A stretch of 64,000 nt of DNA from Archaeoglobaceae archaeon (lineage in GTDB: Archaea > Halobacteriota > Archaeoglobi > Archaeoglobales > Archaeoglobaceae). This document shows positions 19,649-36,888 of this stretch, one piece after another (position 1 is the first letter of the stretch; each line of letters begins with the position of its first letter). The stretch spans positions 6,979-70,978 of the forward strand of contig JALVJV010000010.1 of assembly GCA_027028145.1 (NCBI GenBank), written 5' to 3'. Under the pieces are notes generated by a model that worked only from the letters and a program-made list of their open reading frames with translations, was not told the DNA's origin and did not search any database. The position numbers were made by a program, and so were the translations under genes.

Positions 19649-20106
19649 CCTTCAAATAAAGTATTCCAAGGTAGAAAAGAATAATTTTCTTAAAAAGTAG
19701 AAATTGATTTTTACAAAGGTCGTATGGATGTCTTGACTCTCTCGGTTTTGTTTTTAATTATTATATAAATCTTTATGCTATCCAATGAGTTCATCTACCT
19801 TCTAATTTTGCCATTTTCTTTAATTTCAGTCTTATTTTCTATACAATACTTGTCCTAAATTAGTTCCCATAAGCATAAATTCAGATTGTTTAGCTCTGAG
19901 CAAAATCCAACCAAATCGTTCTTTATCGTAATTTGTGAGGGATTAATAGCGGTAAGAACTATTTTTAGAGACTGGTGGGATATACGAGATATCATATAAA
20001 CTGGTAGCCTCTTAATAGGATGTGGAGACCCAATACCTGTCATAACTAATAGTAGAGATGTATTATGAAGCTACTACATTTGAACAGAGTCTTACGGATG
20101 AGTATA

Positions 20107-20286
20107 ATTTCCATTCTCTTTCTCTTTATGAGATTCCAGACGACACATTGAGAGATTAGCAAAAGTCCCCAGAGTTAAGCCGAGGAAATAATGTTTCCGT
20201 TCTCTTTATGAGATTCTGGTGCCAAGTTGCTCAAGCCCGACAGCACAGACAAAATTATCGTTGTTTCCGTTCTCTCTATGAGATTC
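20107..20286 (-). CRISPR. CRISPR array 1: 3 repeats (24 nt; the distal one degenerate), 2 spacers (56 and 46 nt)
   Basis: Plus-strand repeats GTTTCCGTTCTCTTTATGAGATTC at 20193-20216 and 20263-20286 (the latter with one T-to-C change). A degenerate copy with a 6-nt duplication lies at 20107-20136. The functional strand is inferred from leader position and the GAAAC 3' end. Confidence 0.85.
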
Positions 20287-20400
20287 CGAACCTCAAATTG
20301 GAGATTTGACACCTTATCTTACTACTTCGACCTTCTTCTATAAAACTGTATTTGGTTGCTATCCCAATCTGACAGAGATATTTAAAGAGCAACTAATCTG
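20287..20400 (-). promoter_or_regulatory. CRISPR leader 1 (conserved proximal about 115 bp)
   Basis: Near-identical to 25533-25650 and to the reverse complement of 33085-33200. Contains TTGGTTGCT (20352-20360) / AGCAACTAA (20388-20396) and TATA-like boxes. Confidence 0.75.
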
Positions 20401-20664
20401 AGAACAATTCTCCATTCACTTAACAGAAACTCCAGAAGCCATGCACAAAATTATAAAAAGAGAGAAACCATTCAAATTTGAATAGAATTAGGATTATTGT
20501 AGTATATCGAAAATTAAATGTTGTTCAGGTTTAAATAAAATCCATCATAGCAGATTTTCTCAAAGGACACGAAATTAGAGATCTAACATATTATATAAGT
20601 TAAAATATTATAAAATATAAATAAAAATATACTCACTAAAATACATTATAAAAGTCTGAGTTGT

Positions 20665-21222
20665 TCAAGCTTGTCTACATATCCAAGCGAATCCACAATT
20701 TTTACACCTTCTGCTCTCTTTATATTCTGGAACCAATCCGATCTCGCAAATTTCTCGAATCTTATTTATTATATACTTCACGTATCTTTTTAGCCCGACG
20801 GTGAGCGGGAACTCCACCGTCTTGTCTTTATACTTGAGCACTACACTTGTAACCCTTCCAAAGTTCTCTTCAACAAGCAAAGCATAAGCTACGGCTTGAT
20901 AAAGATGAGATTTTAGAGTTCTTTTATTGAATTCAATACTCTTAAACTCTACGACCTTATAACCGTTAGGTGCCCTCACGATCGCATCAACATAGCCATA
21001 AATGCCGAGTTTTTCAGATTTTAAATAGACATTTGCCATCTCCTTGCCCCTATAAAACTTCTTATGCTCCTTTAAGCCTTCAATCATGCAATCCGTAACT
21101 TTCTCCTTAATACCCATAACCAAAACGAAGTATGGTATCCTAGGACAGAACAGATAGTATTTGATCATTCCAACCGGGATTTCAAATGAGTATGATTTCC
21201 TCATCTTCTTCAAGCTCCACAT
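20665..21222 (-). CDS. cas4: Cas4 (RecB-like nuclease with Cys cluster)
   Basis: N-terminal YYLFCPRIPYF and C-terminal CKNCGFAWIC Cys motifs. About 180 aa, adjacent to cas2. Confidence 0.85.
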   Translation of the reverse strand: MWSLKKMRKSYSFEIPVGMIKYYLFCPRIPYFVLVMGIKEKVTDCMIEGLKEHKKFYRGKEMANVYLKSEKLGIYGYVDAIVRAPNGYKVVEFKSIEFNKRTLKSHLYQAVAYALLVEENFGRVTSVVLKYKDKTVEFPLTVGLKRYVKYIINKIREICEIGLVPEYKESRRCKNCGFAWICRQA

Positions 21223-21460
21223 CGCCTATTATCTCCCTTAAAGCAAAATCAGCCCTGCACAAAACAAAGATTTGAATGTTTCCCTTACTGTTCCCCAAAA
21301 TCCTCTTAAGCCTTGAGATTAGCTCCTTTCTTTTAGCGGATGGCAAGTCTCCTAAAAATGCGCTCTTCTGGATTCTGCTGAGTCCAAATTGCTTGCAAGC
21401 TTTGGCAACTCTATTTCTTACTATGTCGTCCGTTATATCATAAATTACGAGCGTTATCAT
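21182..21460 (-). CDS. cas2: Cas2
   Basis: MITLVIYDITDD...RVAKACKQFGLSRIQKSAFLG. 92 aa, 4-nt overlap with cas1. Confidence 0.9.
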   Translation of the reverse strand: MITLVIYDITDDIVRNRVAKACKQFGLSRIQKSAFLGDLPSAKRKELISRLKRILGNSKGNIQIFVLCRADFALREIIGDVELEEDEEIILI

Positions 21461-22422
21461 CTCAGTATAAATGGAGTATACCTACCTTTTCCCAACAAAA
21501 ACCTCTCAATCCTCCTAGCTTGCAGTGTTATATGATAGTCTATCGGAAGCTTCCTGTTCTCAAACGTAACCTTCGTATTCAGCCTTTTTTCTATTTCAGA
21601 AATCAGGATTTTCCTACCCTCATAACTCATCTTTCCATCCTTCACATACTCGTCTTTAGCTACCTTAAATACCGCTCTATCTACGACTGGCTGTCTAAAT
21701 TCTTCCATCAAATCTACGACTAAAGCCGGTCTTTTTGGATTCTCTGCATGTAGAAATCCGGCATATGGATCCAGACAAGTCATCTCTACAGCCAGCCAAA
21801 CATGAGACATCAGAACGGCATAACCGTAGTTCAGCATGATGTTGATTGGATAATCTGGATCATCGTATCTCTTCTTCCTCTTATCAAAATCGTAAAATTC
21901 CGATATACCATCCCAATAAAGTTCAGCGGCTTTAGCTTCCTCTCTAATGATTTCATCTCTGTTAAAGCCATCCAGTTCGTCAATTCTGTTAGCTCTTTCC
22001 TTAATCTTGTAGCACAATTCCAAAACATCTTTTCTTCTCCTGTTCTTTGCCATCGACTTCAACAAATAATACTGATTCATGATCTTACCTCTTGCGAAAG
22101 ACTTTGCAAGAAACGCTCCTCTCTCATCTTCTTGAGCTTTATACTGCTCCTTTCTAACCCTAACGTTGGATTTCTTCATGAATGGCATGAATCTGCCCGC
22201 TGGAACGCCGTTGCTATTTAAAATAACTACATCGATGTTGTTTTGGAAAGCCAGCCTTAGAAATGCTGAAGACATGGAAACTCCCTTAGTTGCTATTATC
22301 ACGGCTTCAACGTCTCCCGCAGAGATTTCTCTCTCACTCTCACCATTCTTGATAGATATCATCCCGTTCTTCATACCCAAAAACACACCCCAACCGCTAG
22401 CTATCAGTTTCATTGCAAACAC
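21457..22422 (-). CDS. cas1: Cas1 integrase
   Basis: 321 aa. Alpha-helical C-terminal domain with NIMLNYGYAVL...GFLH....RPALVVDLMEEFR, typical of Cas1. Confidence 0.9.
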   Translation of the reverse strand: MFAMKLIASGWGVFLGMKNGMISIKNGESEREISAGDVEAVIIATKGVSMSSAFLRLAFQNNIDVVILNSNGVPAGRFMPFMKKSNVRVRKEQYKAQEDERGAFLAKSFARGKIMNQYYLLKSMAKNRRRKDVLELCYKIKERANRIDELDGFNRDEIIREEAKAAELYWDGISEFYDFDKRKKRYDDPDYPINIMLNYGYAVLMSHVWLAVEMTCLDPYAGFLHAENPKRPALVVDLMEEFRQPVVDRAVFKVAKDEYVKDGKMSYEGRKILISEIEKRLNTKVTFENRKLPIDYHITLQARRIERFLLGKGRYTPFILR

Positions 22423-23308
22423 CGTAAAAACAACAACTCTTAGGACAAGAATCCGGCTTTCCGGGATCTCTTCCCGAATTTATCAATTCTATCATCTCAT
22501 CTCTTAATTCCAAAAACCTCCTTCTGAGTTCATCTCCTATCAAGATGTGTTTAAGCTTGAAATTGACAAAACCGTTCTTAAACCTTAGATAAATTACGAA
22601 TCCGAAATTCACATCCGTCATTTCATCGGATTCTAACGCTAAAGCGTATCCTGCCAAGGCTATAGCGTTTTGATCTCTAATTTCTCCGCTCTTTAAGTCC
22701 GCTATGGCGTTATACGGAATGAAGAAATCCACCGATAGATTATCGGATAAACCAATTAGACTCCCATCCACCTTCCTTTCAACTATCGGCGGTAAAGCTT
22801 TTCCTACGATACAGTCGGCATCCGCATACGGATATTTAGCTAGAATTCTGTCAACTTGAGAGGCACACTGAATAACGATGTATTTGAAAAGCTTTTTGCA
22901 ATTCTCTCTGATTGAGTTACTTATATTCAATCTATCGCAGATATTGTCAGGTATATCGCTTGAAAACATCTCTTCTACGATTTCAGAGCCATTCACCGGT
23001 TTTTGGTAGATTATTCTCTTTATCTGATACAAAGCTTCCTTAATAACTTCGTGATAGGCTAAACCGATAAGCATATAGACGTTTGGCTTCGGCTTAAATC
23101 CTTCAACGTATTTTAGATAGATGTCCCTCATGGTCCTGCATATTCCACAGAAATCTGAGACAGATAGCTTAACACCATACTCTATCGGCTCAACTGGCGG
23201 GGAATCCCAATTGTAACCCCTCAACTCCTCAGAAATTCCAAACTTCTCAAGTTCCTTCCTCATAACCTTAATCCTTTTTTCAACTTCCAACGTATCTACG
23301 AAGAACAC
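22397..23308 (-). CDS. csa1: Csa1 (Cas4-like, subtype I-A adaptation-associated)
   Basis: LRGYNWDSPPVEP N-terminal motif, RecB-like IADLKSGE, C-terminal CPKSCCFYGVC. 303 aa, directly upstream of cas1. Confidence 0.75.
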   Translation of the reverse strand: MFFVDTLEVEKRIKVMRKELEKFGISEELRGYNWDSPPVEPIEYGVKLSVSDFCGICRTMRDIYLKYVEGFKPKPNVYMLIGLAYHEVIKEALYQIKRIIYQKPVNGSEIVEEMFSSDIPDNICDRLNISNSIRENCKKLFKYIVIQCASQVDRILAKYPYADADCIVGKALPPIVERKVDGSLIGLSDNLSVDFFIPYNAIADLKSGEIRDQNAIALAGYALALESDEMTDVNFGFVIYLRFKNGFVNFKLKHILIGDELRRRFLELRDEMIELINSGRDPGKPDSCPKSCCFYGVCNETDS

Positions 23309-23497
23309 AATACGATCTGGAATTTTTAGCTATATTAGAAATTCTTGTAAACTTCTGTAAGAATTCCAAAATTCTGAAAAATTTTCAGAACTTGAAATCT
23401 AATCTCTTTCCCTAAGGAATTCGAAATCGAAGTGGTGGTAAAACCGGATTCTGATGAGATTTAAAAAAGAGACGAAGGTTGCTTGCATTAATGAGCT

Positions 23498-23521
23498 ATT
23501 ACCGTTCTCTTCATGAGATTC
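23498..23521. repeat. Orphan degenerate CRISPR repeat
   Basis: ATTACCGTTCTCTTCATGAGATTC matches the array consensus at 21 of 24 positions. It lies in the csa1 / CARF-gene divergent intergenic region, 44 nt upstream of ATG 23565. Confidence 0.7.
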
Positions 23522-23564
23522 CGAGGCGTAAGGTATATGATTGTTGTGAGGTTAGATAAGTTAA

Positions 23565-24080
23565 ATGAAAGTTTGGGTTACTACGGTTGGTAAGAAACCC
23601 TTTGCTGTTTTGAATACGATATGGTACTTAGTAAGGAAAGGAGAGTATATTCCTGAGAGGGTCTATCTAATATGGAACGATTTTGTAGAAAAAGAAAAAG
23701 AGATCGTGAAAGAGTTAATTAGGGTGTTGCTCGAAAGTTATGGTATTCATCCAGAGATAATAGCTGATGAAAGTGTTAAAGTGGACGAAGACGATTTTCA
23801 CAATCTGATTAAGATGTTGGCGGAGATTAGAGATAAAGAACTTGCGGAGGGAAACGAGATAGCGGTGGATATGATGCCGGGAAGGAAGTTTATGTCCGCT
23901 CTTTCAATGTATTTAGGCGTTGCTGGCGAGTTGATAAAAAGGAAAAAGAATGTCCACAGAGTTTACTATCTACATTTAAGAGATCTAAGATTTGTAGATA
24001 AACCATTAGTCTTAATACCGTTTAGCGTTCAGAAGTGTTACGAAATGAGGAGGGAGCTCGATGCTCGTGCAAAGAGCTGA
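23565..24080 (+). CDS. Stand-alone minimal CARF-like protein (171 aa)
   Basis: MKVWVTTVGKKPFAVLNTIWYL...RVYLIWND and VDMMPGRKFMSALSMYLG parallel the LGTSPxVVTE / GGRKxM signature of the protein at 34121-34681. Confidence 0.65.
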   Translation: MKVWVTTVGKKPFAVLNTIWYLVRKGEYIPERVYLIWNDFVEKEKEIVKELIRVLLESYGIHPEIIADESVKVDEDDFHNLIKMLAEIRDKELAEGNEIAVDMMPGRKFMSALSMYLGVAGELIKRKKNVHRVYYLHLRDLRFVDKPLVLIPFSVQKCYEMRRELDARAKS

Positions 24081-25083
24081 TTTAATGGTGCTCCTAAACT
24101 ACATTTACGAAGAAGATCCGTGCTTTGAAATAAAAACGAACTTAAGTCTTGATGGTAGAAAAGATGCTCCACTTGCAACGGTTGAATTGAAGGACAGCTA
24201 TGCTCAAGTTGAAACTATCGACGAGAGCACATATGATGAGCTGACATGTAAACATGGGGACTTCTTTCCCAAATACTCGAATTACTTAAATGCTTTAGTT
24301 GCATCTGGTGTTCTGAAGATTAAAGATATAGATGACATTTTCAGCAAGATCGTTAACGAATTTAAGAAGGGATTATACGAGGGAAGACTAAGGCCGTTGT
24401 ATGTTTCTTTTGACACGAACTGTTTTATAAATAGGATAAGCTACCAGCTTGAGAAGTATGCTAAGGAAAAGAATGCTAAGCTTGGAGCGTTAGTTGTGGC
24501 GGAGGGAGTCAAAAGAGAGTTGTTTAAAGAAAAACCTGGCAAATACAAGGAAGAAGAGCTTAGAGTCATTGAAAGGGTGGATAATAGATTTAAGGAATTT
24601 TTGAATCAACCTAAAGTGGAAGAGAGGATTAAGAAGATCAGCAAAGCTGAATACGATAGGTTTAGAAGTATAGTTAGATTTGAAGAGATTCCTTCCGGCG
24701 TAGGAGACAACGAAATAGCTGAAGCTTTGGGTGATTTTTTGAGAAGTAGAAATTGTGATGTGTGGTTAATGACGTTTGACAAAACAATGTATGAGATTTC
24801 CGTTGGGTTTGGAATTTATCCAATATTGTTGAAGTTTCCGTATAGAAAAGAGAGGCTAAAGCTGAAAACCGACTGGGACTGTGTCTGCCATTTGATATAC
24901 ACCACTGCGATAATATTCGGTTTCGTGAATGTAGAGGGTATAATGATGTATGGAATTTGGAAGGGCAAAAATCCAGATGACTGGAATAAAGAAATGGTTA
25001 AGCTTAAGCTGAATAAAGATACTAAACAGCTTAGGATGGACTTGGAAGTGTTGAGCAAGATTAGAAAGATAATAAATTTTTAA
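24061..25083 (+). CDS. PIN-domain protein with extra N- and C-terminal domains (340 aa), CRISPR-associated by context
   Basis: PIN acidic motifs in order: VSFDTNCFINR, VAEGVKREL, GDNEIAEAL, LMTFDKT. Overlaps the CARF-like gene by 20 nt. Confidence 0.65.
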   Translation: MLVQRADLMVLLNYIYEEDPCFEIKTNLSLDGRKDAPLATVELKDSYAQVETIDESTYDELTCKHGDFFPKYSNYLNALVASGVLKIKDIDDIFSKIVNEFKKGLYEGRLRPLYVSFDTNCFINRISYQLEKYAKEKNAKLGALVVAEGVKRELFKEKPGKYKEEELRVIERVDNRFKEFLNQPKVEERIKKISKAEYDRFRSIVRFEEIPSGVGDNEIAEALGDFLRSRNCDVWLMTFDKTMYEISVGFGIYPILLKFPYRKERLKLKTDWDCVCHLIYTTAIIFGFVNVEGIMMYGIWKGKNPDDWNKEMVKLKLNKDTKQLRMDLEVLSKIRKIINF

Positions 25084-25147
25084 TAATAATTGTTTATCGT
25101 TGCTTAATCTATTTGGTATTTTAAAAGGGTTTTGTAAAGTGGAGTTT

Positions 25148-25532
25148 GTTTCCATTCTTTTTATGAGATTCCGAGATTTTGTCGGAAGTTATGAACGGCA
25201 CGGCTGTTGTTGTGGAAAAGTTTCTGTTCTCTTTATGAGATTCACAGCGTTTGAGGGAAATTGCGGAAGCTGAGGGAACTACTATTGCGTTTCTGTTCTC
25301 TTTATGAGATTCGCTATTGCATGTCGTGATATCGGAGGAATTGAACGAAGCTCTCAGTTTCTGTTCTCTCTATGAGATTCATAGATAACATAGTAAAGTC
25401 GGCAAAGCTGACGGATGAGGAAAGTTTCTGTTCTCCTTATGAGATTCTAAGAATAACTCTACCCGTAGCTTCAAACGGAGCGGAAGTCTATATCAGAAGA
25501 AAAACCTAGTTTCTGTTCTCCTTATGAGATTC
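25148..25532 (-). CRISPR. CRISPR array 2: 6 repeats (24 nt), 5 spacers (48, 45, 44, 43, 61 nt)
   Basis: Plus-strand repeats GTTTCTGTTCTCTTTATGAGATTC at 25220, 25289, 25357, 25424 and 25509, with minor variants. A degenerate distal copy lies at 25148-25171. The leader is on the high-coordinate side. Confidence 0.92.
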
Positions 25533-25650
25533 CGAACCTCAAATTGAAGATTTGGCACCTTATTTCGCTTGTTTGATCTCCTCCTATAAAATCATATTGG
25601 TTGCTACCCTATTCAGACGAGGGTATTTAAAGAGCAACCAATCCAAAACC
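25533..25650 (-). promoter_or_regulatory. CRISPR leader 2 (conserved proximal part, followed by about 400 bp of AT-rich DNA)
   Basis: Shares sequence with leaders 1 and 3. Inverted repeat TTGGTTGCT (25597-25605) / AGCAACCAA (25633-25641). TATA-like CCTATAAAA (25583-25591, antisense TTTTATAGG) lies about 50 nt from repeat 1. Confidence 0.75.
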
Positions 25651-26061
25651 TTTTGTTCTCTTGGCTATTTGAAGTAAATCCGGTTAAATTACAAAAATTG
25701 ATTACCTTATAATGCTCCAATCATCAAAATATTATGAAGTATAATGTAGTAACGATAATAGCACGATGTAACTTAAATATAAAATTTTATAGTCGGGATT
25801 AGCAATTCTTTAGCTTAGAATTCCGTGATAAATCATATTAATCAAATTTAAATAATATTTAATTAATATATTTTTTAGAATTAAAATAAATTATAATTTA
25901 GTATAATTTGAATTAGTTTAGAGATCGTGTTGGAAAAGTGGATAGGCATGCTAATTATCTCTTAAAATTTTGAAACCAACTGGATTTTTTGTAGAGCTAA
26001 CTTAATGAGCGATCTATGAAAAAGCAGTAAAAGTTTAAGATATAAAGTTAAATCTTAGATT

Positions 26062-26584
26062 ATGAGAATTTGAATAACAACCATTGGAAAGAGTCCTTTT
26101 TGCAGTAATAAATCCAATATAGATGGTTTGCAGAAAAGAAGAATACATACCAGAATATGAAGATATTAAGCACACTATGGAGAGTGGTGTTCATAAACCT
26201 GAAATGATAGCTGATGAGAGTGTAAGAGTTCGTGAGGATGATTTTAAGCAGTTTATGGATGTTCTAAGGGATATTTGTGATAAGGAATTGAATGAAGGTA
26301 ATGAGATTGCGGTAGATATGACTCTAGAAAGAAAGTTCATGTCTGCGTTATCTATGGGCTTAGGAAGTTTGGAAGGAACAATGTGATGAACGAGTGACTT
26401 GATATATACAATGGCTACAATTTTTGGTTTTATCAGTATCTCCAGAATAACACGTCTTTGGAATTTGGAAGGGCATGAACCATGATGATTGGAATCATGA
26501 AAGAGATCTGATAGAATGATCAAGAAAGATCTGAGCATTTTAAAGGAGATTGAAGATATAGTTAACAGGATTCATCATTCTTAG
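26062..26584 (+). pseudogene. Decayed paralog of the CARF-like/PIN gene pair (in-frame stops, frameshifts, about 1 kb internal deletion)
   Basis: Nucleotide-level similarity to 23565 through about 23900 and to about 24890-25083. The fourth codon is TGA where the intact copy has TGG. Track ORF 26123-26386 is its largest surviving open piece. Confidence 0.75.
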
Positions 26585-26617
26585 CTTTCGTGAAAGTTTT
26601 TCTACTTCCACGAAGTT

Positions 26618-27607
26618 TTACTCTAATATTTCTAACCAGCCTGGAAGCCATTTATAAGATCTACTGTTCTTTGGAGATCTTTCGTAATCTACGATTACTC
26701 TTCTGGTTTTTGGAAAGTCAGTTCCAAACTTTCTGCTAAGTCTGAGTTTTTTAGCTACTTCAAGTCTTTCATCTTTCGTTAAAAGAGATCCAACTGTTTT
26801 CCAGAGCCATCCAGTTGAAAAACCTATCCTAAAGAGAACTTTTCCAGAATCGAGCTTACCTTCGATTTCATCTATAAATCTAAGGATTTTATCAAATCTT
26901 CCATCATTCCTCTTCTCGAAGAATTCTTTATCTATGGACAACACGAACCTTGAGAACTCCAGAAGCTTGTCCTTCCAGTCTTCCAACTCTTTGAATTCCT
27001 TGCTATTAACTCCTACACCCATCTCCAATTTCGTGTTAGGTTTCAGTGATTCAGTATATATCTTTAGAGTTCTTCCACCTCCTAACGTCTTTTCTTCCAA
27101 AGATTGGCCATTTCTCTCGGTTAGGATGACAGTCTCATATATTCCAAGATTTTCGATCTCAACTGGTTCGCTGTCTCTAACTAGGAAAAATCTCATTAAA
27201 TCTCCCTTATTTGAGGTAAAAAACTCTCTTTCCACTTTTTTAAGTTCTTCTATGCTTCTAACCTTTGATCCCTTATCTCTTAGGTATTTCCACAACAATG
27301 CCGTTCTTACAGCACCTTTCAGAGACGAACCAGGAATGTATGGCTTTCCCAAAATCTTGATATGCTCAAGTATATCCCTATCTGGTTTACAGAACGCATC
27401 AACTTCATATTTATAATAGTTAGAAGCAGTTCGTGGATCAAACCTTCCAGCTTCTATCATCTTTCTAATCCTTTCGTTCTCACTCCAAGCCTTCTCGTAA
27501 TCAATCACCCTAACTTTACCATTTCTATAGAGGTAATCAATCCTTGTGAGTTTGTCTCCTGAACCGATGTGGATGGGAGAAATTACACGGAGAATCAATT
27601 CCACCAC
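26618..27607 (-). CDS. csm5: Csm5 (type III-A RAMP)
   Basis: ISPIHIGSGDKLTRIDY and PYIPGSSLKGAVRTALL. 329 aa, last gene of the csm operon. Confidence 0.8.
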   Translation of the reverse strand: MVELILRVISPIHIGSGDKLTRIDYLYRNGKVRVIDYEKAWSENERIRKMIEAGRFDPRTASNYYKYEVDAFCKPDRDILEHIKILGKPYIPGSSLKGAVRTALLWKYLRDKGSKVRSIEELKKVEREFFTSNKGDLMRFFLVRDSEPVEIENLGIYETVILTERNGQSLEEKTLGGGRTLKIYTESLKPNTKLEMGVGVNSKEFKELEDWKDKLLEFSRFVLSIDKEFFEKRNDGRFDKILRFIDEIEGKLDSGKVLFRIGFSTGWLWKTVGSLLTKDERLEVAKKLRLSRKFGTDFPKTRRVIVDYERSPKNSRSYKWLPGWLEILE

Positions 27608-28491
27608 CCCATTGGTAAAGTCAAAGCTAGATAATTCCTGTAAATTTTAACACCATCAACCTGATCTTCTAAAATTCTACCTTCCATCCCTTTTGGAAGG
27701 ACAGAACCCTCCCCAAGAACTCTAACTCTCCTCTTTCTGCTACTGTCTGTCCATCCACCCTTTTCAAGGAGAGAGTAGTAAGTATTCTTTAAGATTTCTA
27801 CTTCTGATCTTTCTGGTAAACATAGAGATAGCAGTAGATTCCATTTACCTGAGATTTTCCAAGAATAACTCTCCGCTTTAACTCCGAATTTCCCGTAACC
27901 GATCGACCTTCCACCTCCAAGTCCTTCCTTTCCTAAGATTTTTACAAAATAGTCTATGTTTACGTCGCCCGAGTACAGAAAATATAGTCCAGAATTCTTT
28001 TTAAATTTTAATGCATGAATAGCAAAGATTTGAGTTTGTTCGTTTATTCGATGCTTAGCGTTTCTCACGATTTTGATCTCATCATAAAATTTAGGAATAT
28101 TATCTTTAGCTATAAAATCTCCATATCTCTTTTCCTTCTTTTCATGTTCACGCTTTATAACATCAAGTGTAGCTTCCTGATCCTTTAATAGCTCTTCTTC
28201 TATCCAGCTTTTCTTCTTCCATATTCTCAGTAGCTCTCTGTCATTTTCAATCTCTCTTGGAGGTCTAATAGGTTTTGGAAAGAAAAGTTTGTTTTCGTAG
28301 AATGGAAAAGCGGATGAAAACCTTGGATCACTTTCGCAAAAATCTTTCAGAGCTTCTACTCCCTCCAGTTCAACTATAACGTTGGCTACTGCTGCAAATA
28401 TGGTGTCGGATCTGGGAAAATTTCCTTCTACATCGGGTTTAAACTTAAGCGGAGCCTCAAAGTACATTCTGTATATTCTCAGTTTCATCAA
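27595..28491 (-). CDS. csm4: Csm4 (type III-A RAMP, Cas10 partner)
   Basis: N-terminal PRSDTIFAAVANV and GLGGGRSIGYGKF glycine-rich loop. 298 aa. Confidence 0.8.
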   Translation of the reverse strand: MMKLRIYRMYFEAPLKFKPDVEGNFPRSDTIFAAVANVIVELEGVEALKDFCESDPRFSSAFPFYENKLFFPKPIRPPREIENDRELLRIWKKKSWIEEELLKDQEATLDVIKREHEKKEKRYGDFIAKDNIPKFYDEIKIVRNAKHRINEQTQIFAIHALKFKKNSGLYFLYSGDVNIDYFVKILGKEGLGGGRSIGYGKFGVKAESYSWKISGKWNLLLSLCLPERSEVEILKNTYYSLLEKGGWTDSSRKRRVRVLGEGSVLPKGMEGRILEDQVDGVKIYRNYLALTLPMGWWN

Positions 28492-29258
28492 ATCTTCGCC
28501 TCCTTAAGTTCGCCCTCAAAAATCTTTATCGGTTTACCATCTTTAACAAAGTAATCTAGCGGAAGAATCTCAATCTTAAGGTTCTCGAATTTGACCTTTC
28601 CGTAACCTCTCGTTCCGCAACCTCCAAGGTAGTCCTCTTCGAGCAACTTCATACCCTTTATTATCAATCCTAGCCTCTTTTTTAACGGATTTGGAAGGTT
28701 TTCGAGGTTTTTAATATCACTGAGCTTGGATCCATCCATATCTGCATCGAAGATCCTATATACTATTTCCACATCAAATACCGTTCCAGGTAAAACTCTC
28801 TCAGTGTCTCTCAACCCGTATTCAACTCGTGATGTTATCCTATTTATAGCATTCTCATACTTTATCTCTGTATAGCCAGCCTTTCTTGCCTTTTTATCAC
28901 TCAGCTCTTCGTTGATCTTGCAGTCTCTAAATATTACCCTCGTTGGCCCCTCATTCGTCTTACGTTCTCCTGCTCTCCCAAACACTACACATAAGTCGCA
29001 TGCGTCCTTCCCTTTTTCGCATTCATGTCTTCCAAGCTTATCATCTATCGGTAATCCTTCAGCAAGTTCAAGCAAACTCCTAATCTTTCCTTTTAGTGAA
29101 GAGCCGGGTATGTATGGTTTTCCGTCAGATCCCTTTATTACTGGATTGTCGGTGGCTCCGATTGCTATACCACCAGTTCCTCCTCCTATGTGAAGTCCAG
29201 TCAAAACTCTTAAGTTACAGCTAATCTTAACAAAGCCTAAAAACCTCATAACGACCAC
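28488..29258 (-). CDS. csm3: Csm3 (type III-A backbone RAMP / target RNase)
   Basis: LHIGGGTGG..GATDNPVIK and PYIPGSSLKGKIRSLLE. 256 aa. Confidence 0.85.
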   Translation of the reverse strand: MVVMRFLGFVKISCNLRVLTGLHIGGGTGGIAIGATDNPVIKGSDGKPYIPGSSLKGKIRSLLELAEGLPIDDKLGRHECEKGKDACDLCVVFGRAGERKTNEGPTRVIFRDCKINEELSDKKARKAGYTEIKYENAINRITSRVEYGLRDTERVLPGTVFDVEIVYRIFDADMDGSKLSDIKNLENLPNPLKKRLGLIIKGMKLLEEDYLGGCGTRGYGKVKFENLKIEILPLDYFVKDGKPIKIFEGELKEAKI

Positions 29259-29611
29259 CCCTCATATTCCCTCTCCTGTGCCTTGTAATAACGAGCATAA
29301 GCAACAACAGCTTCGAGGAAGTTCAGCAACTTTTCTCTTGCAATTTCGAATTCTTCACTGCCAACTGGACCTCTCTTTCTCACCTCATCAACAAGCTTAT
29401 CGATAAAATTTACGAGGGCTATAAGTTCTCTATGTCTCGCTGCCTGATACTTCAGTCGTGGCTTTACCATCGCAAGGTCTGGACTCTTTAGAACAGTTTC
29501 ATATATCATTCTGACCTGTCTTTCCTTTTCGTAAATTCTCCTCCCAAACCTCTCAGCTTCCCTTTCAAGTGTTACCGGATCGTCCAAAATCTTACCAAAC
29601 TCCACTCTCAT
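29246..29611 (-). CDS. csm2: Csm2 (type III-A small subunit)
   Basis: 121-aa helical protein located immediately after cas10 (III-A gene order). Contains RLKYQAARH. Confidence 0.7.
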   Translation of the reverse strand: MRVEFGKILDDPVTLEREAERFGRRIYEKERQVRMIYETVLKSPDLAMVKPRLKYQAARHRELIALVNFIDKLVDEVRKRGPVGSEEFEIAREKLLNFLEAVVAYARYYKAQEREYEGWSL

Positions 29612-31956
29612 TCTTTCACCTCCGAACGAGTTAACAGCTCAACCCATCTGAGAGCTACAAGCAAGTAAGAAAAATCGTTAGAATCAAAAGCTTCATCCAA
29701 GGCTTCGTCAAGTTTTCGTAAATCTGCATCCTTATATCTCTCCATAAACCTCGCTATAACGTATTTTACCTTCCATCTTCGCCTATACTTACCATCCGAA
29801 TTTAAGCAACCAAGTAAAGCAAATACTATCGATCTCGAAAGCTTTCCGTTGTTGATCTGATTGAAAAGTAGGTTCTTCAATTTTCTTGTCTTGTTAAGAA
29901 CTTCGAATTTTAATTTCTCATTGAATATCGATATTGCCGATTTTCCTTCAAGGGTTTTCGCATCTTCGAGCGCTTCAAGGGTTGTAAAGTATGATTTATA
30001 CACGGGAAACTTCTTCTTAGTTATTGTGACAGCAGCAGAGATCGTTAGATTAGGATTAGCTGTAAAAATAGCATATTCTTCCTTTATCTTAGTTGCGAGA
30101 TCAATTATTTGATCCCAAGGGCCTAAAACAAATAGATCATCCCCTCCACTGAAAACCACATACACTTGCGGGTTTTCTGCATAGTTGTTCTCAGTGAAGA
30201 AATAACCTCTTCTGCAGATTTCATTCACGCAAAAGCCAAAGAAAATCTCAAGCAGAGAACTTAATGTCGCATACCTCGCTGGTGTAATTCTACCTACTTT
30301 CAAATCTTTTTCGTCAACATTCAGTTTCTTTACCCACCACCTTTTAACACCTCTACTGAAAATTTTACCCATATCATCTCCGTCCATTTTGAGAATACCC
30401 AAATATTTAGCACCCTTAGAAGCATCTGCAAGTCTATCCACACTCGTATCTCTAACGTGGACGTTAAAGAACCTGAAGCCACAACCAACTCCAAACTTCA
30501 GAAATTCGTCTTCAAGAAAGTTCACATCGTTTACAGTAAAAACATAGTCTGCATCTCTTAGGTTTTCTGGTAAATTTTCAAGTTTAAAACCTATATCAAA
30601 TATGCAGACATCACCAGACCCGTTCTCATAAATTCCCACGTAAATCTTTGCCTTTTTTCCGGCTCTTTCAGACTCTTCGGCAATTCTTGTCACGTTTATG
30701 AGTTTCTTTGAAAGATCGTATATCCTCTTACACCTACTACAGACCTTTAATTTTTCTTCTTCCTCTCCTTCACCAATTTCAACTGGCTTCTCTACAAAAA
30801 ATGAATTACAAACATCGCAGATGTTCTTGCCCCTATCAGGGAAGAATATCTCATTGTAATTTTCGAGGAGGATTTCCGAATATTTTCTAAATTTTCTAAT
30901 CTCTATAGCTTTCTCTGCATCTTCTACAATCTTCTCGAAATCTCTTGTTTCATTATAACTCCTCTCCACCCAAGCAAGGGTTATGTATAATCCGTAGTTT
31001 ATCAGCTCTTTGTTCATTTCCTTCGCTAAATTCGAAAGCTTACTCTTTATCTCATCGTTTACCGGGGCAATTATAGTGAAATTCCCTGCCGTAGCTGATA
31101 ATATTTGAGTGGGTGGAATACCAAGTTCTTTGCATATCTTAAGTGCAGCGGCAAGATTTAAAAGCTCCAGAAAGAACGACCTACCTTTCAAAAATCTTAG
31201 AGCTTTCTTCAATGAAATTTTCGCTATAAAATTCTGAAGACCAGATATGTCACCTCTCACGAGTAGGAACTTTTCTCTGTTTACAAGCATCGTGCACGCA
31301 AACATCGAAGAGAGTCTAAGATGTTCATAAAGCGAAGTATCTGGAATTGGAATCCTACCATTCCTTCTTTCATACGTATCCGCTGGAACGAAGAATGCGT
31401 ATCTTTTCAGGAGATGAAGAAGCGTGAATACTAACTTTTCGAAGTTCATTTTTGAGTTGAAGACTTTTCTTAGATCTTCTACGAGCTCGGAGTAAAATCT
31501 GTAGTCTACTCCTACCTCCTCTATCGACTTTGGACGAAGGTAATATGGTTCAAGCGTTAGTTCTCTCACATAGAAGTAACTTTCAGTCGATTCTCCCTTG
31601 CCTATATCTACTGTTGAGAGAATACTAAGAATTGGTCTTTCTCTTCTATCTTTGGATGCCCACTCATTGAGATGTTTCTTATCAATGCTTTCTCTCTCAA
31701 TTCCTGCAGAGACACTATCTGCTTCACATACAATTTCTGCATACTCTTTGAGATCATCTCTTACCTCTGCAAGCGTATTTAACTCTGCACTTTTATGATG
31801 TCCATACGCTATCTCCGCCAAATCATCATCGAACTCCTTCAGAAGATCTCTGGTAAGATGGGGATGCTTACCTCTTTCCCCCAACCTTTCAGCTATCTTA
31901 CCAATGTCATGAAGGAGAGCCGCTATAATTGTCTTCTGTTCTAGGCTTAAATTCAT
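29608..31956 (-). CDS. cas10: Cas10/Csm1 with HD nuclease and GGDD cyclase motifs
   Basis: N-terminal LLHDIGK...GHH (HD), Zn-finger CDVCN...CSRCK, Palm VVFSGGDDLFVLG. 782 aa. Confidence 0.92.
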   Translation of the reverse strand: MNLSLEQKTIIAALLHDIGKIAERLGERGKHPHLTRDLLKEFDDDLAEIAYGHHKSAELNTLAEVRDDLKEYAEIVCEADSVSAGIERESIDKKHLNEWASKDRRERPILSILSTVDIGKGESTESYFYVRELTLEPYYLRPKSIEEVGVDYRFYSELVEDLRKVFNSKMNFEKLVFTLLHLLKRYAFFVPADTYERRNGRIPIPDTSLYEHLRLSSMFACTMLVNREKFLLVRGDISGLQNFIAKISLKKALRFLKGRSFFLELLNLAAALKICKELGIPPTQILSATAGNFTIIAPVNDEIKSKLSNLAKEMNKELINYGLYITLAWVERSYNETRDFEKIVEDAEKAIEIRKFRKYSEILLENYNEIFFPDRGKNICDVCNSFFVEKPVEIGEGEEEEKLKVCSRCKRIYDLSKKLINVTRIAEESERAGKKAKIYVGIYENGSGDVCIFDIGFKLENLPENLRDADYVFTVNDVNFLEDEFLKFGVGCGFRFFNVHVRDTSVDRLADASKGAKYLGILKMDGDDMGKIFSRGVKRWWVKKLNVDEKDLKVGRITPARYATLSSLLEIFFGFCVNEICRRGYFFTENNYAENPQVYVVFSGGDDLFVLGPWDQIIDLATKIKEEYAIFTANPNLTISAAVTITKKKFPVYKSYFTTLEALEDAKTLEGKSAISIFNEKLKFEVLNKTRKLKNLLFNQINNGKLSRSIVFALLGCLNSDGKYRRRWKVKYVIARFMERYKDADLRKLDEALDEAFDSNDFSYLLVALRWVELLTRSEVKE

Positions 31957-31968
31957 CTATAGTACCTC

Positions 31969-32628
31969 CTAAGTGCTCCATCTGGCTTTACACAATCTGC
32001 CTAAAAAGGTAAGCCTGTATCTCTTCACTCTACCGTTTGTCGAAACCTCCAAAAGACCGTATTCTTTCAGCTCTCTTAGATACTGAGAAGCTGTTTTCTT
32101 GCTAATTCCCAACTTCTTAGAAATCTCCGCAGAGCTATCGCCATCCTCCAAAACTCTTATGACCTCCTTTTTAACATTTGAAAGCTGGTCGAATTGAGCT
32201 AAATTATAGGGAATCTCAGTTAGTTCAGCTCCATTCTTAAGTTCTTGGACGTATATAACCTTACATCCAGCTATGAAAGCTGCGCAAGATGTGGCTATGG
32301 ACTGAACCTTGGTTCCACCAGTAACGCTCACATAAACATCCCCTTGGGCTTTCTCCCTTTCAAGGATCTTCAAAGCTTCGACACAGCATTCCTCAAAGTT
32401 GAAGGGATCCACGATCCTAATTTCAACTTCAGCACCAAATTCTTCAAGCTTATTCTTAATATCTTCAGCAACCTCAACGGGATTTGGTTTCCCTTCTATT
32501 GCCTTATCTCCAAACACATCCTTTGCAGGTTTCCCAGCTATCAAAATTACCCTATCAAATCCGATCTTTCTTGCGGATATCAGAATAGGTTCAGCGGTGC
32601 CGCCAACAGTTGCGACAAGCACCTTCAC
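31969..32628 (-). CDS. CARF plus winged-HTH regulator (Csa3-like)
   Basis: MKVLVATVGGTAEPI..., VSVTGGTKVQS (CARF-like), C-terminal ISKKLGISKKTASQYLRELKEYGLLEV (HTH). 219 aa, GTG start. Confidence 0.65.
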   Translation of the reverse strand: MKVLVATVGGTAEPILISARKIGFDRVILIAGKPAKDVFGDKAIEGKPNPVEVAEDIKNKLEEFGAEVEIRIVDPFNFEECCVEALKILEREKAQGDVYVSVTGGTKVQSIATSCAAFIAGCKVIYVQELKNGAELTEIPYNLAQFDQLSNVKKEVIRVLEDGDSSAEISKKLGISKKTASQYLRELKEYGLLEVSTNGRVKRYRLTFLGRLCKARWST

Positions 32629-33084
32629 GCTAAAGTTTGTAACTTACAACATATATATTGCTTGTGTTTCATTATCTGAAAATTTCTCAGAAGTCTGAAA
32701 ATTCATCAGTGTCCTAAAAATTGACATCCGGTAAAAAATTTAAATGATCGAATTGGTTTCACCTTACAATTAGGATAGAAGACAGATCGCACTTAATACC
32801 CCTATCATCTACAAAAATTCCAAATATGTCTTAATTTTATAATATATTTTATTGGATTATATTAAATGCTAATTTATTAATTTTTCTATGCATATAGTTT
32901 ACTATAAAGGAGATTAACCGATTTCGAGCGAAACAAATGCTTAATATTTTTATAAAATGGAGAACGTATTTTTTACACCATAATAGACTATTCACCTCTA
33001 TTTCAATCAATTACTGAGCGAATTAAGTCTGCTATAAAAATGTATGAATTCATGGCTGTGTTTATAGCGTGAAAAAGACCGTCT

Positions 33085-33200
33085 CCCCAGATTGGTTGCT
33101 CTTTATATACTCTTGGCAGATCGAGGTAGCAACCAATATGGTTTTATAGAAGGAGATCAAACAAGTAAAATAAGGTGTTGAATCTCCAATTTGAGGTGCG
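33085..33200 (+). promoter_or_regulatory. CRISPR leader 3 (conserved proximal part)
   Basis: Reverse-complement homolog of leaders 1 and 2. TTGGTTGCT (33092-33100) / AGCAACCAA (33128-33136). TTTTATAGA box at about 33142-33150. Confidence 0.75.
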
Positions 33201-33285
33201 GAATCTCATAAAGAGAACGGAAACTCTTACAGTTCTTATGCTTATGCCTAATTGTTCAGCAGAATCTCATAAAGAGAATCGATAG
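33201..33285 (+). CRISPR. CRISPR array 3: 2 repeats, 1 spacer (37 nt)
   Basis: GAATCTCATAAAGAGAACGGAAAC (33201-33224) and degenerate GAATCTCATAAAGAGAATCGATAG (33262-33285). Confidence 0.75.
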
Positions 33286-33356
33286 AAAACTTTATTTTAG
33301 CATTAAATATATAATACTAATAATAAAATTTAAATGAAATTGACCACTATCTATAA

Positions 33357-33773
33357 TCAACCCTGCACGATTTTAACGTCCAAATTCTTGAAGTGATTGT
33401 CGAAGGTGTAGATTTCCTTAACGTCGATCTCCTTCATCTTCAGATAGGCTAAAGCATCGTTTATGCTAACGTTTTTCTCTTTAGCAATTAATAAGGCTTT
33501 TAGATAATCCTCTTGCGAAACGGATAAGATTCTGACATTATCGGCAAGTAGCATATTTTCAACGAACTTCAAAGCTGTTGAAAGGTTTGCTTTGGCTTCG
33601 AGGATGTTCGCAACCTCGCTCAAGTGGACTACCGTAGTTACGACTTCTTCACCCTTCTCAACCCTGAGCAGTATTCTCTTGGCAATTTCCTTTCTCTTGA
33701 GCACATTTTCACTCACCTCTTTTTTCGGTTTTACTATAGCGTAAAGAAACACGTTGGCATCTATAAATCTCAT
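33357..33773 (-). CDS. vapC: PIN-domain toxin (VapC-like)
   Basis: MRFIDANVFLYAI..., distal TFDNHF. 138 aa, 4-nt overlap with the upstream antitoxin gene. Confidence 0.8.
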   Translation of the reverse strand: MRFIDANVFLYAIVKPKKEVSENVLKRKEIAKRILLRVEKGEEVVTTVVHLSEVANILEAKANLSTALKFVENMLLADNVRILSVSQEDYLKALLIAKEKNVSINDALAYLKMKEIDVKEIYTFDNHFKNLDVKIVQG

Positions 33774-33991
33774 TCGAACACCTCTTTAAGAATCTCTTCA
33801 ATATCTTCCTCAATATCGGCTTCGATTACGTCGAAGAACTGCGAGAGCTTTGGTTTTCTCTTCGGCAGGATCTCTATCCTGTCCTCAAACTCTATCAAGA
33901 CAACTTCGTTACCCCACCTCTCCCTCCACCCCTTAGGTAAAACTATCCTTCCCTGACTATCTACCCTCCTTACTTCCACAATCATTAACAA
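33770..33991 (-). CDS. vapB: AbrB/SpoVT-type antitoxin (VapB-like)
   Basis: VDSQGRIVLPKGWRERWG looped-hinge motif. 73 aa. Confidence 0.75.
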   Translation of the reverse strand: MLMIVEVRRVDSQGRIVLPKGWRERWGNEVVLIEFEDRIEILPKRKPKLSQFFDVIEADIEEDIEEILKEVFE

Positions 33992-34120
33992 TCACCATTA
34001 ATCATTCTCATAACCAACTTTTTAAAACTATCCCATTTTGTGAGTGTTTTTCTTATTATAGCCAGTTCAGCATTCTAAGAGGATATTCTGAGAAAAACGA
34101 TTTTTACCTGTGGTTATGAA

Positions 34121-34681
34121 GTGTTCTTTATGGTTACACTTGTAGCGTCCTTGGGGACGAGTCCGATGGTTGTAACCGAAACTATCGACGAGCTAAAGAA
34201 GAGAGGAACGACTGTTGATAGGGTGATAGTTTTGACGACTAAGAATCCGAGGGTAGAGGCATCTTATTACGCCTTAGCACTCGACTTTAAGTGGAACTAC
34301 GAAAACGTCGAATTAAAAAAGGTGGAACTACCGTTTGATGACATAAAATCGCAGAAAGATCACGACGAATTCGTTAGAATAGCTAAAGAGGTTATCAAAA
34401 AGGAGATGGATGCTGGTAGAGAAGTAGTGGTATCCGTAGCCGGTGGAAGAAAGACGATGGGTGTTGGAATATACAAGGCGGGGTTGGAGGTTGGTGTTAA
34501 GGAGTTTTATCACGTCATAGCTGAAGAGGTCGCAGGAACTTCCGACTTCCTGAAGAATTTAATGACATACGACCTAAAGTCCATTTACGAAGGTAAGATG
34601 GAAGCTCCAGAGAGCTTAAAGAAGCTGATAACTTGGGAGATGCATCGTCCCGATCTGACAATACATTTGATAAGAGTTTAA
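34121..34681 (+). CDS. Stand-alone CARF protein (Cas_NE0113-like signature)
   Basis: LVASLGTSPMVVTETIDEL and VSVAGGRKTMGVGI. About 183 aa; the likely true start is Met 34130. Confidence 0.7.
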   Translation: MFFMVTLVASLGTSPMVVTETIDELKKRGTTVDRVIVLTTKNPRVEASYYALALDFKWNYENVELKKVELPFDDIKSQKDHDEFVRIAKEVIKKEMDAGREVVVSVAGGRKTMGVGIYKAGLEVGVKEFYHVIAEEVAGTSDFLKNLMTYDLKSIYEGKMEAPESLKKLITWEMHRPDLTIHLIRV

Positions 34682-34767
34682 AATATTATAACTATAATTT
34701 TTCATATTGATGATCCAATTGGATTATCAGTTCGATGCTATCCGAATCGGCTAACCTACTCTTGAGA

Positions 34768-36081: not shown

Positions 36082-36087
36082 ATCAAG

Positions 36088-36888
36088 CTACTTTGTTTTA
36101 TCGTATTTAAGAACTCTTATCTTTCCCAAGCCAGATGTTCTTCCGCCACCTACATTCGAATATTCACCAAAGCTGAGCAGTCTCGATGTGATTCTCGCAA
36201 ATTCCTCGTTGTATGTATCATTTGGGATTGAGAAGTTCACCTCTCCAACGAAACCTACTGACCACAAACCCTTTTTCAGTAATACCTTCTCCGTTCTGAT
36301 ATTGCAACCGGATACGGCAATCCCCCACTCATCGAGCCACTCTCTATACTCCCTTGGCAAGCTTGAAACGTATGCCTCATAGAGTCTCGTCAAACTTCTA
36401 AAGAGAAGTTGCGGAAGCGGTAATGGGACAAATCTGTAATCTAAATTTGGGATTCTAAAATAGCATGGTGTTAGAAACTTTATTCTGAACTTTCTAATTT
36501 CTTCATCTTCAAAATCATCAATGTATCTTACTTCTATTCCATCCAATTCATTGAGCATACCGACAAAGGGTATTCGGTCGATGCTCGTTAAGTATTCCTT
36601 TAAAGCTTCTCCAATCTCCTCAACAAATACTGAGATCGTAAAAGAATACTTTTCACCTTCTACAATCTTTTCAATTGAGTAATTGTTATCCTTAAAGACC
36701 GGAGAAGTTGCGAAAGGTGCTAATCCCTTGCTAGAGTGAAGTTCCTTAGCTAAGATTCTGTTTATCTTTCTTAAAACCCAGTAGAGAAATCCCCTAACGT
36801 AAGCCCCAGAATACATCCAAAAATATTTCGATTCCGACGCTATGAAATCAATAGTGAAGTAGACTATCATCCCAACTACTGTAAACAA
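36088..36888 (-). CDS. cas6: Cas6 crRNA endoribonuclease
   Basis: C-terminal glycine-rich loop SNVGGGRTSGLGKI. About 260 aa with a duplicated RAMP-like layout. Confidence 0.8.
   Translation of the reverse strand: MFTVVGMIVYFTIDFIASESKYFWMYSGAYVRGFLYWVLRKINRILAKELHSSKGLAPFATSPVFKDNNYSIEKIVEGEKYSFTISVFVEEIGEALKEYLTSIDRIPFVGMLNELDGIEVRYIDDFEDEEIRKFRIKFLTPCYFRIPNLDYRFVPLPLPQLLFRSLTRLYEAYVSSLPREYREWLDEWGIAVSGCNIRTEKVLLKKGLWSVGFVGEVNFSIPNDTYNEEFARITSRLLSFGEYSNVGGGRTSGLGKIRVLKYDKTK

Follow-up and report, generated by a model that had tools for sequence, protein, structure and literature searches.

A gene-split CARF and PIN-module pair beside a type III-A CRISPR locus of an Archaeoglobaceae archaeon as a two-gene form of the Crf6 (CARF_m1) family

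When a gene for a small CARF protein overlaps that of a putative PIN nuclease next to a type III CRISPR locus, is the pair a novel effector responsive to cyclic oligoadenylate (cOA), or a catalogued family in an unfamiliar arrangement? The question is raised by a 64,000-nucleotide (nt) stretch of an Archaeoglobaceae archaeon genome (GenBank assembly GCA_027028145.1, contig JALVJV010000010.1, positions 6,979 to 70,978 of the forward strand; this whole stretch is hereafter "the window", and coordinates are counted from its first letter), in which the open reading frame (ORF) of a 171-amino-acid (aa) CARF protein overlaps, by 20 nt and in a different frame, that of a 340-aa PIN-module protein. 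The ORF coordinates, sizes and overlap given in a preliminary description of this DNA, which had been made from the sequence alone, all proved exact, and the motifs it quoted are found in the translations (VTTVGKKPFAV and MPGRKFMS in the CARF protein; FDTN, KRE, GDNE and TFDK in the PIN protein). Its interpretation held as far as the CARF, the PIN domain, the coupling of the genes, their co-occurrence elsewhere and the type III-A neighbour are concerned, but not in its view that the system is an unrecognised one: judged by its profile matches, the pair is a gene-split Crf6 (legacy name CARF_m1), that is, a member of a catalogued CARF+PIN family.

Identity of the two proteins

This assignment is carried, first of all, by a single PADLOC model of the fused family, CARF_m1--CARF_PIN (PDLC01973), positions 1-154 of 465 of which match the 171-aa protein (E 4.5e-55), while positions 172-456 of 465 match the 340-aa protein (E 5.1e-43); since one fused-family model spans both proteins end to end, the two genes are the halves of a CARF+PIN family that is catalogued as one polypeptide. 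The Sulfolobales CARF_PIN model of PADLOC, PDLC01068, likewise matches both proteins (E 2.6e-32 for the CARF and 3.9e-24 for the PIN protein), and the 171-aa protein is additionally matched by the PADLOC models PDLC01972 and PDLC01971 (E 4e-29 and 6e-24, respectively), small stand-alone CARF_m1 proteins being already known and represented by these models of their own. Full-length homologues devoid of stops exist for both proteins down to about 20-40% identity, which places the ORF pair far beyond chance.

In the CRISPR-Cas classification as updated in 2025, Crf6 (legacy CARF_m1, CARF+PIN) is entered as a predicted sensor, effector and ring nuclease ('s,e,r'), with a 2020 computational survey as the only work cited for it, and Crf6, Crf10 and Crf11 (CARF-PIN) are among the type III accessory families for which the current classification gives no biochemical mechanism. 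A CARF+PIN cluster (Msed_1167) had been reported by Shah et al. (2018). The preliminary description had held that the pair is not a characterised system, a view overtaken by PDLC01973/Crf6 covering both halves, and by the related proteins ST0035, tested with cyclic tetra-adenylate (cA4) in 2018, and SiRe_0806, crystallised with it. What was not found described in the literature searched is the PIN-module partner without a CARF, or the two genes as one operon; the 2020 survey lay outside that search and may mention them.

The 171-aa protein, called CARF-like in the preliminary description, is by its PADLOC match and its predicted structure indeed a CARF domain with a Rossmann-like alpha/beta fold: in a Foldseek search of the PDB with its AlphaFold2 (AF2) model, whose confidence is good over residues 1-104 and poor after them, the top 21 matches are CARF proteins without exception, and every significant match is a CARF (Cdn1, Cam1, Csm6, Sso2081, Can2, SiRe_0806, Card1, Csa3 and Cad1 are among them). 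The word "PIN" is absent from the text of the paper on Cdn1, the top fold match, which is not described there as a PIN enzyme. Pfam returns only Cas_APE2256 for this protein, under the cut-off (E 0.006), and among solved proteins, two Crn1 ring nucleases, Sso2081 and Sis0455, come nearest to it in sequence (E 8e-7 to 2e-5 against PDB sequences). Crn1 and the window CARF are similar in size and share the G-R-K of motif II, which aligns to G104-R105-K106 of Crn1 and is invariant across relatives close and distant, split and fused. They differ in that Crn1 is neither paired nor fused with a nuclease module, whereas the window CARF is coupled to a PIN module, and in that the catalytic-site Thr10-Ser11 of Crn1 is K10-K11 in the window CARF. 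The family consensus at the two motifs reads V-G-x-S-P and D-M/I-T-P-G-R-K, and the window CARF has V-G-K-K-P and D-M-M-P-G-R-K. TAL-effector matches of the CARF profile, and of P0031, were discarded as an artefact of summed weak repeat matches containing no single significant stretch.

The 340-aa protein, as judged by conservation and its predicted fold, is a PIN nuclease core set between conserved N- and C-terminal domains. The best Foldseek match of its AF2 model (16 homologues; pLDDT 80, pTM 0.81) in the PDB is SiRe_0806 (9jxw apo and 9jxx with cA4; E 3e-6 to 3e-4, probability 1.0), followed by the PIN-containing PINA helicase (5yww/5f4h), and the plain PIN domains 1o4w (the AF0591 PIN) and 3ix7 match at a probability of 1.00 with template modelling (TM) scores of 0.57-0.58 (target). 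Conservation was assessed in 114 diverse stand-alone PIN-module proteins with 18-60% identity to the window protein, among which D118, D216 and D240 are invariant, and T119 and E153 at least 90% conserved. The complete acidic tetrad that had been proposed for this protein (D118, E153, D216 and D240) is thereby borne out, with one refinement: the "E in VAEGVKRE" does include the conserved glutamate, E153, whereas E148 is variable. Pfam PIN_4 matches 43 of these 114 members (best E 2.6e-8) and PIN_12 matches 17.

Outside the tetrad, N13 of the N-domain, R189, and G298, G302 and K303 of the C-domain are at least 90% conserved in the same set, the C-terminal domain carrying a conserved G298-x-W-x-G302-K303...DW..E motif. 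The flanks of about 110 aa (N-terminal) and 90 aa (C-terminal; about 80 aa as delimited here), which the preliminary description could not assign, are both conserved parts of the family module and are kept in the fused members, where the N-domain lies between the CARF and the PIN core, and where positions 2-330 of the PIN-module profile correspond to residues about 175-510. Other searches added little: an NCBIfam scan of both window proteins gave nothing beyond sub-threshold or irrelevant matches, a PHROGs scan of both gave no match, and Foldseek against viral structures gave no match at E <= 1e-3.

SiRe_0806 of S. islandicus (9JXW apo, 9JXX with cA4) is a structural match of both the PIN-module and the CARF models, because of which we infer a CARF+PIN make-up for it, and it is assumed here to belong to the PDLC01068 cluster. 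The resemblance is a distant one: the structural alignment shows 14-16% identity, and neither the PIN protein nor its profile gave a meaningful match when PDB sequences were searched with HMMER, SiRe_0806 being reached by the fold search only. Unlike the window pair, SiRe_0806 and the Sulfolobales CARF-PIN proteins (Msed_1167, ST0035) are single-chain, and they are shorter (about 373-418 aa). The literature search found no paper describing the SiRe_0806 structure.

The closest comparison with a fused form is provided by P0075 (496 aa), which has 52% identity to the full window CARF over its residues 1-164 and 32% identity to the PIN module over residues 289-476; it is homologous to the window pair in both halves and has them in the same order, a CARF being followed by the N-domain, the PIN core and the C-domain. 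Fused members also have the D-E-D-D tetrad and the V-G-x-S-P and D-M-T-P-G-R-K motifs (with S11K and T104M in the window CARF). The family is modelled as one polypeptide, though, whereas the window has two genes that overlap by 20 nt, the first ending in a stop codon and containing the internal ribosome-binding site of the second, and the linker of about 15 residues seen in fused Crf6 is absent; the catalogued single-polypeptide architecture is therefore not that of the window pair. Domain fission and fusion are common, and a two-gene Crf6 would not greatly surprise a specialist.

The two-gene form across relatives

Is the split peculiar to this genome, or is it how the family is usually organised? 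A profile search, run exhaustively over 1.84 billion representatives, returned 331 PIN-module relatives at E <= 0.001, and among the best 148, to which all counts of architecture given here refer, 111 are of stand-alone size (290-400 aa), 21 are shorter and probably fragments, and 16 (about 11%) are longer, at least 448 aa. An N-terminal CARF_m1 is detectable by a hidden Markov model (HMM) in 14 of these 16, and the N-terminus of another protein, P0088, is a divergent CARF-like one recognised by eye only. The two-gene form is, on these counts, the majority architecture of the Crf6 family. As the fused proteins are scattered over at least six separate places in a rough neighbour-joining tree, fusion or fission between the CARF and the PIN module is, as far as this tree indicates, something that has happened repeatedly.

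Closer to the window, the 340-aa protein has 17 close homologues, full length at 319-375 aa except for two that cover 67-77% of the query, and the 171-aa protein has 19 homologues, of 154-191 aa throughout. The identical pair of 171 and 340 aa is also present on an independent assembly (L005). Genomic contexts were obtained from 12 exact-protein look-ups, with the CARF and PIN calls checked using HMMs from both alignments (a profile scan of genome contigs with alignment A1 yielded only five loci). The preliminary description had staked its interpretation on the two genes co-occurring in other genomes, and they do: of the 14 lineages having upstream sequence, 13 have a CARF_m1-type gene directly before the PIN module (the window, L001, L006, L009, L011, L013, L014, L016, L017, L018, L019, L020, where it is cut by a contig end, and L021), the only lineage without it being L012, in which the 5' end of the PIN gene is rearranged. 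Conversely, the CARF is almost never seen among the sampled relatives without a PIN module downstream of or fused to it, and the divergence of the CARF and PIN halves is correlated (r = 0.80 for 153 pairs from 18 lineages).

The arrangement at the junction is also retained, if not in its exact measure. In the window, the stop codon of the CARF gene (24078-24080) lies beyond the ATG of the PIN-module gene, and the junction reads ...GAGGAGGGAGCTCGATG...; across 10 junctions, the overlaps are 20, 20, 20, 8, 4, 4, 1, 1, 0 and -2 nt, and GGAG(G) is found 5-10 nt before the ATG in all ten. By this layout, the CARF and PIN-module genes are translationally coupled on one transcript, and the coupling that the preliminary description had claimed is borne out by the overlap and the GGAG-type sites at the junctions.

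Such repeated fusion and fission of a sensor and an effector offers a natural series on what covalent linkage adds. For annotation, the pattern matters in that CARFs of about 165 aa are small enough to be given a ring-nuclease label, and their partners of 330-380 aa, having no Pfam domain, are overlooked as effectors. The locus and the survey together present the Crf6 module as usually two translationally coupled proteins, which is useful for annotation and makes it an attractive biochemical target, as each of the two separate proteins, sensor and nuclease, can be purified, mutated and titrated singly, so that the coupling between cOA binding and the nuclease becomes directly testable.

Proposed action and competing explanations

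How might two separate chains do the work of one? The explanation that we consider the probable one, though with considerable room for others, is that the CARF and PIN proteins of the gene-split Crf6 pair form a complex, that cOA activates it, and that the PIN domain then cuts RNA. The 171-aa and 340-aa proteins would be made from one transcript by coupled translation and would assemble non-covalently, probably as CARF2:PIN2, equivalent to the homodimer of a fused member. On meeting invader RNA, the Csm complex would have its Cas10 cyclase make cOA, most likely cA4; the CARF dimer would bind it, and the ensuing rearrangement would activate the presumably metal-dependent PIN site (D118/E153/D216/D240), which would cut RNA non-specifically and slow down both cell and virus alongside the Csx1 of the same locus. 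The csm operon is the presumed source of the signal, and the intact GGDD of its Cas10, on which the preliminary description had relied, is present. Complex formation, the ligand, the RNA substrate, and activation rather than release are all steps that we infer. Of the possible ligands, cA4 seems the most likely one because the SiRe_0806 structure holds it, because ST0035 cross-linked to it, albeit weakly, and because Crn1, the protein that the window CARF resembles most, is cA4-specific; as for the substrate, RNA is the likeliest given what is generally known of PIN domains and the annotation in the 2025 classification.

The logic of this proposal is that of Csx1/Csm6 (CARF-HEPN), in which a CARF dimer senses the cOA made by Cas10 and switches on a non-specific RNase, a cOA-gated mechanism that is established (reviewed in PMC9704534). 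The differences are that Csx1/Csm6 are single chains with a metal-independent HEPN domain, whereas the window pair has a presumably metal-dependent PIN domain and comes as separate polypeptides.

Several observations weigh against the proposed cOA-activated complex. Pfam gives no PIN match, nor anything else relevant, for the window's own 340-aa protein; as the Pfam PIN matches are in its relatives, PIN membership by sequence comes through transitivity only. The C-terminal third of the CARF model, including motif II, has a pLDDT below 50. The only published test of a CARF-PIN protein is that of ST0035, described by Shah et al. (2018) as "a CARF-PIN toxin", which cross-linked weakly to cA4 and showed no induced RNase. 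Crf6 is described in the 2025 classification as typically not CRISPR-associated, and in four of the nine lineages with long flanks (L001, L014, L017, L018) no cas genes lie within 8-10 kb of the pair. Finally, the window CARF itself departs from its family at the predicted ligand site, where Lys11 (23595-23597) replaces the family Ser11, so that the Ser/Thr ligand contact of motif I is missing from it, and where Met104 (23874-23876), unique to the window CARF, replaces a near-invariant Thr104.

These two substitutions deserve to be seen against the relatives. Most distant relatives keep Ser11, as do 13 of the 18 close ones; S11K is common to a small subclade (P0020-P0022), and a subclade at 85-89% identity has Lys or Arg at this position. 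Both family residues, S11 and T104, are found in P0019, which shares 94% identity with the window CARF. As S11K and T104M fall on ligand-site positions, binding or turnover is possibly altered: the window CARF may bind or cleave its ligand differently or more weakly, or it may be a copy starting to decay like the remnant found at 26078-26560. For the family at large, Ser11 and the invariant G-R-K of most members make a self-limiting ring-nuclease activity of the sensor plausible.

The contender that survives best, unlikely as we consider it, is a ligand-gated toxin-antitoxin logic, in which the mini-CARF stoichiometrically inhibits a constitutively active PIN toxin until cOA or another nucleotide frees it; an equally doubtful variant has the CARF degraded or titrated, the nuclease being set free rather than switched allosterically within a stable complex. 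The layout is reminiscent of VapBC, with a small upstream gene overlapping a PIN gene and coupled translation, and release requires a sensor split from its effector, which is how most of the family is organised. Many pairs, moreover, lie outside CRISPR loci, as free-standing toxin-antitoxin or abortive-infection modules do, and the cas loci of the window and L006 are studded with VapC/MazE-PIN modules. The likeness to VapBC, however, is one of gene layout only: VapBC combines a DNA-binding antitoxin with a compact PIN toxin of about 130 aa, whereas here a CARF without any VapB-type DNA-binding domain accompanies a 340-aa PIN protein with two extra domains. Covalent fusions of both parts exist in the Crf6 family, and it is these fused relatives, making up about 11% of the family and scattered in the tree, that argue against release, as they cannot dissociate yet keep the same domains and the same place beside csm5. 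If, in spite of this, the split were functional rather than incidental, with the mini-CARF inhibiting a PIN toxin until cOA releases it and, in most relatives, also serving as a cOA-degrading timer (a nucleotide-gated toxin-antitoxin module, for which the chances seem slim but not trivial), the pair would plug into type III signalling where Cas10 is present and would be a stand-alone abortive-infection unit elsewhere. It would then be the first demonstrated case of a CARF sensor controlling, in trans, a nuclease with a gene of its own, and Crf6 would be mainly a two-protein system bridging CRISPR signalling and toxin-antitoxin modules.

Less probable still is that the two proteins have independent functions, the mini-CARF being a Crn1-like ring nuclease that degrades cA4 and thereby resets signalling and the PIN protein not being under its control, an alternative that the preliminary description had itself put forward. 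The best sequence matches among solved structures are, after all, the ring nucleases Sso2081 and Sis0455, the G-R-K of motif II is invariant, most relatives have the Crn1-type Ser11, the 's,e,r' mark in the 2025 table includes a predicted ring nuclease, and a CARF of less than 250 aa beside a type III locus is what ring-nuclease pipelines would select. Against this stand the near absence of the CARF without a PIN module downstream and its fusion to one in several lineages, together with the Lys that replaces Ser11 in the window CARF: in Sso2081, Thr10 and Ser11 lie at the phosphate/catalytic site, where mutation of Ser11 lowered cleavage by about 80%, and Tyr133 in a helical insert helps to bind phosphate (PMC10018336). 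The locus also has a better candidate in the canonical 186-aa CARF at 34121-34681, which has the LGTSP and GGRK motifs and is likely its dedicated ring nuclease, making the mini-CARF less likely in that role; and ring-nuclease activity is compatible with that of a sensor anyway, as in self-limiting Csm6. With fusions, coupled genes and this better candidate, independent action becomes the weaker reading of the pair relative to a jointly acting CARF and PIN module.

That the pair merely neighbours the CRISPR locus and senses a signal other than that of Cas10 (another nucleotide or an RNA end) we regard as quite improbable. The CARF of RtcR is a precedent for the sensing of RNA ends. The typical lack of CRISPR association ascribed to Crf6, the four of nine long-flank lineages without nearby cas genes (in one of which a Mokosh-like MkoA helicase follows) and the weak binding of cA4 by ST0035 would all fit such a signal. 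Five of the same nine lineages, however, have the split pair in or beside CRISPR loci, a fused homologue lies directly after csm5, the decayed copy in the window abuts csm5, and cA4 is part of the closest solved structure; the five of nine are consistent with a signalling module that is often, though not always, attached to type III systems. Finally, that the split is an artefact (a frameshift mutation, a sequencing error or a programmed frameshift in a fused CARF-PIN gene), as the overlapping frames and the existence of fused relatives might suggest, is effectively refuted by the conserved two-gene form, with the same 171 and 340 aa layout on the independent assembly L005, two genes both in all close relatives and in more remote lineages whose junctions differ, a stop, a GGAG site and an ATG at each junction, and a second protein that is conserved from its first residue.

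The CRISPR island around the pair

The type III locus that the preliminary description placed next to the pair is there, in the form of a type III-A Csm operon. The island (Table 1) begins on the left with array 1 and its leader, followed by cas4, cas1 and csa1 on the minus strand, the orphan repeat, the CARF gene, the PIN module, and array 2 with its leader; to the right come the decayed pair, csm5-csm4-csm3-csm2-cas10 on the minus strand, a Csa3-like CARF-HTH gene, a VapC gene, the 186-aa CARF, Csx1, cas6 and another VapC. Its G+C content, 0.35-0.41 across 20001-38000 as compared with 0.41-0.50 in the flanks, is consistent with horizontal acquisition. A scan for sigma-70 promoters and terminators was uninformative, the locus being an archaeal one.

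Table 1. Coordinates of the CARF/PIN-module pair, its parts and the neighbouring features within the window
Feature	Position	Strand	Basis or remarks
CARF gene (mini-CARF, predicted sensor half of split Crf6/CARF_m1)	23565..24080	+	171 aa, ATG
CARF motif I, V8-G9-K10-K11-P12	codons 23586-23600	+	sequence
CARF motif II, M104-P105-G106-R107-K108	codons 23874-23888	+	sequence
Shine-Dalgarno-like GGAGG	24049..24053	+	within the 3' end of the CARF gene, 7 nt before ATG 24061
PIN-module gene (predicted effector half of split Crf6)	24061..25083	+	340 aa, ATG
N-terminal alpha/beta domain of PIN module, about residues 1-108	24061..24384	+	AF2 secondary structure, conservation
PIN nuclease core, about residues 110-260	24388..24840	+	fold match, conserved acidic tetrad
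Acidic tetrad codons	D118 24412-24414; E153 24517-24519; D216 24706-24708; D240 24778-24780	+	conservation
C-terminal domain of PIN module, about residues 262-340	24844..25080	+	AF2 model, conservation
Orphan CRISPR repeat	23499..23524	.	88% identical to array repeat; 40 nt upstream of CARF start, after csa1
CRISPR arrays 1 and 2	20114-20398 and 25148-25643		~3 and ~6 repeats, ~24 nt, GTTTCTGTTCTCTTTATGAGATTC
Decayed second CARF/PIN copy	26078..26560	+	directly beside csm5; CARF HMM E 7e-30
Type III-A effector operon csm5-csm4-csm3-csm2-cas10	26618..31956	-	PADLOC E 1e-11 to 4e-124
Cas10	29608-31956	-	HD at residue 16, GGDD at residue 604
VapC-size PIN genes	33357-33773 and 37088-37480	-	among cas genes
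Stand-alone CARF, 186 aa	34121-34681	+	Pfam Cas_NE0113 E 8e-25; LGTSP and GGRK motifs
Csx1 (CARF-HEPN)	34768-36081		same locus

The second, decayed CARF/PIN copy has an in-frame stop, a frameshift and a deletion of about 25 codons in its CARF remnant, which runs directly into the final ~70 codons of a PIN module, the entire PIN core having been deleted; a DNA repeat pairs 24951-24994 of the intact PIN module with 26459-26502 of the decayed copy. As the decayed copy is nearer the L001/L006 clade than the intact window pair, it would seem to be an older resident rather than a recent duplicate.

The type III neighbourhood is not confined to the window. In L006 and L007, the relative order is retained, with a single toxin-antitoxin module between csm5 and an intact pair, and a homologue of the 186-aa CARF, whose GGRKxM signature the preliminary description had pointed out and which is present as GGRKTM, occupies the same relative position. 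Type III genes (Csx19, RAMPs, cas6 and cas2) are found near the split pair in L016 and L021, Csx1 and type I-D-like genes in L013, and the gene of the fused P0075 follows directly after cas10-csm2-csm3-csm4-csm5 in GCA_000371805.1, an archaeon.

As for the arrays, each is followed by a leader-like stretch of ~110 nt, the two being 81% identical to each other, and the minus-strand reading of the repeat, ...GAAAC, suggests that transcription starts from the right-hand leader. The orphan repeat upstream of the CARF gene could be a relic of an array, or else a processing or regulatory site.

VapC-type PIN genes with MazE-type antitoxins are also found among the cas genes of L006 (8449-8802, 11521-12140 and 18937-19612). 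In L018 (7147-11830), a CARF_m1 protein with a C-terminal extension of ~115 aa (284 aa in total) is followed, in a variant of the operon, by a PIN module and then by an MkoA-like (Mokosh) helicase of 903 aa and a protein with a PLD domain. At 3397-5272 of L021, the gene for a Cam1-like CARF-transmembrane (CARF-TM) protein of 251 aa overlaps that for a 375-aa protein without a family match, and in the CRISPR-less L001 (5447-9362), the pair comes after genes for a DHH/DHHA1 phosphoesterase, a CPxCG zinc-finger protein, a weak nucleotidyltransferase-like protein and CofD.

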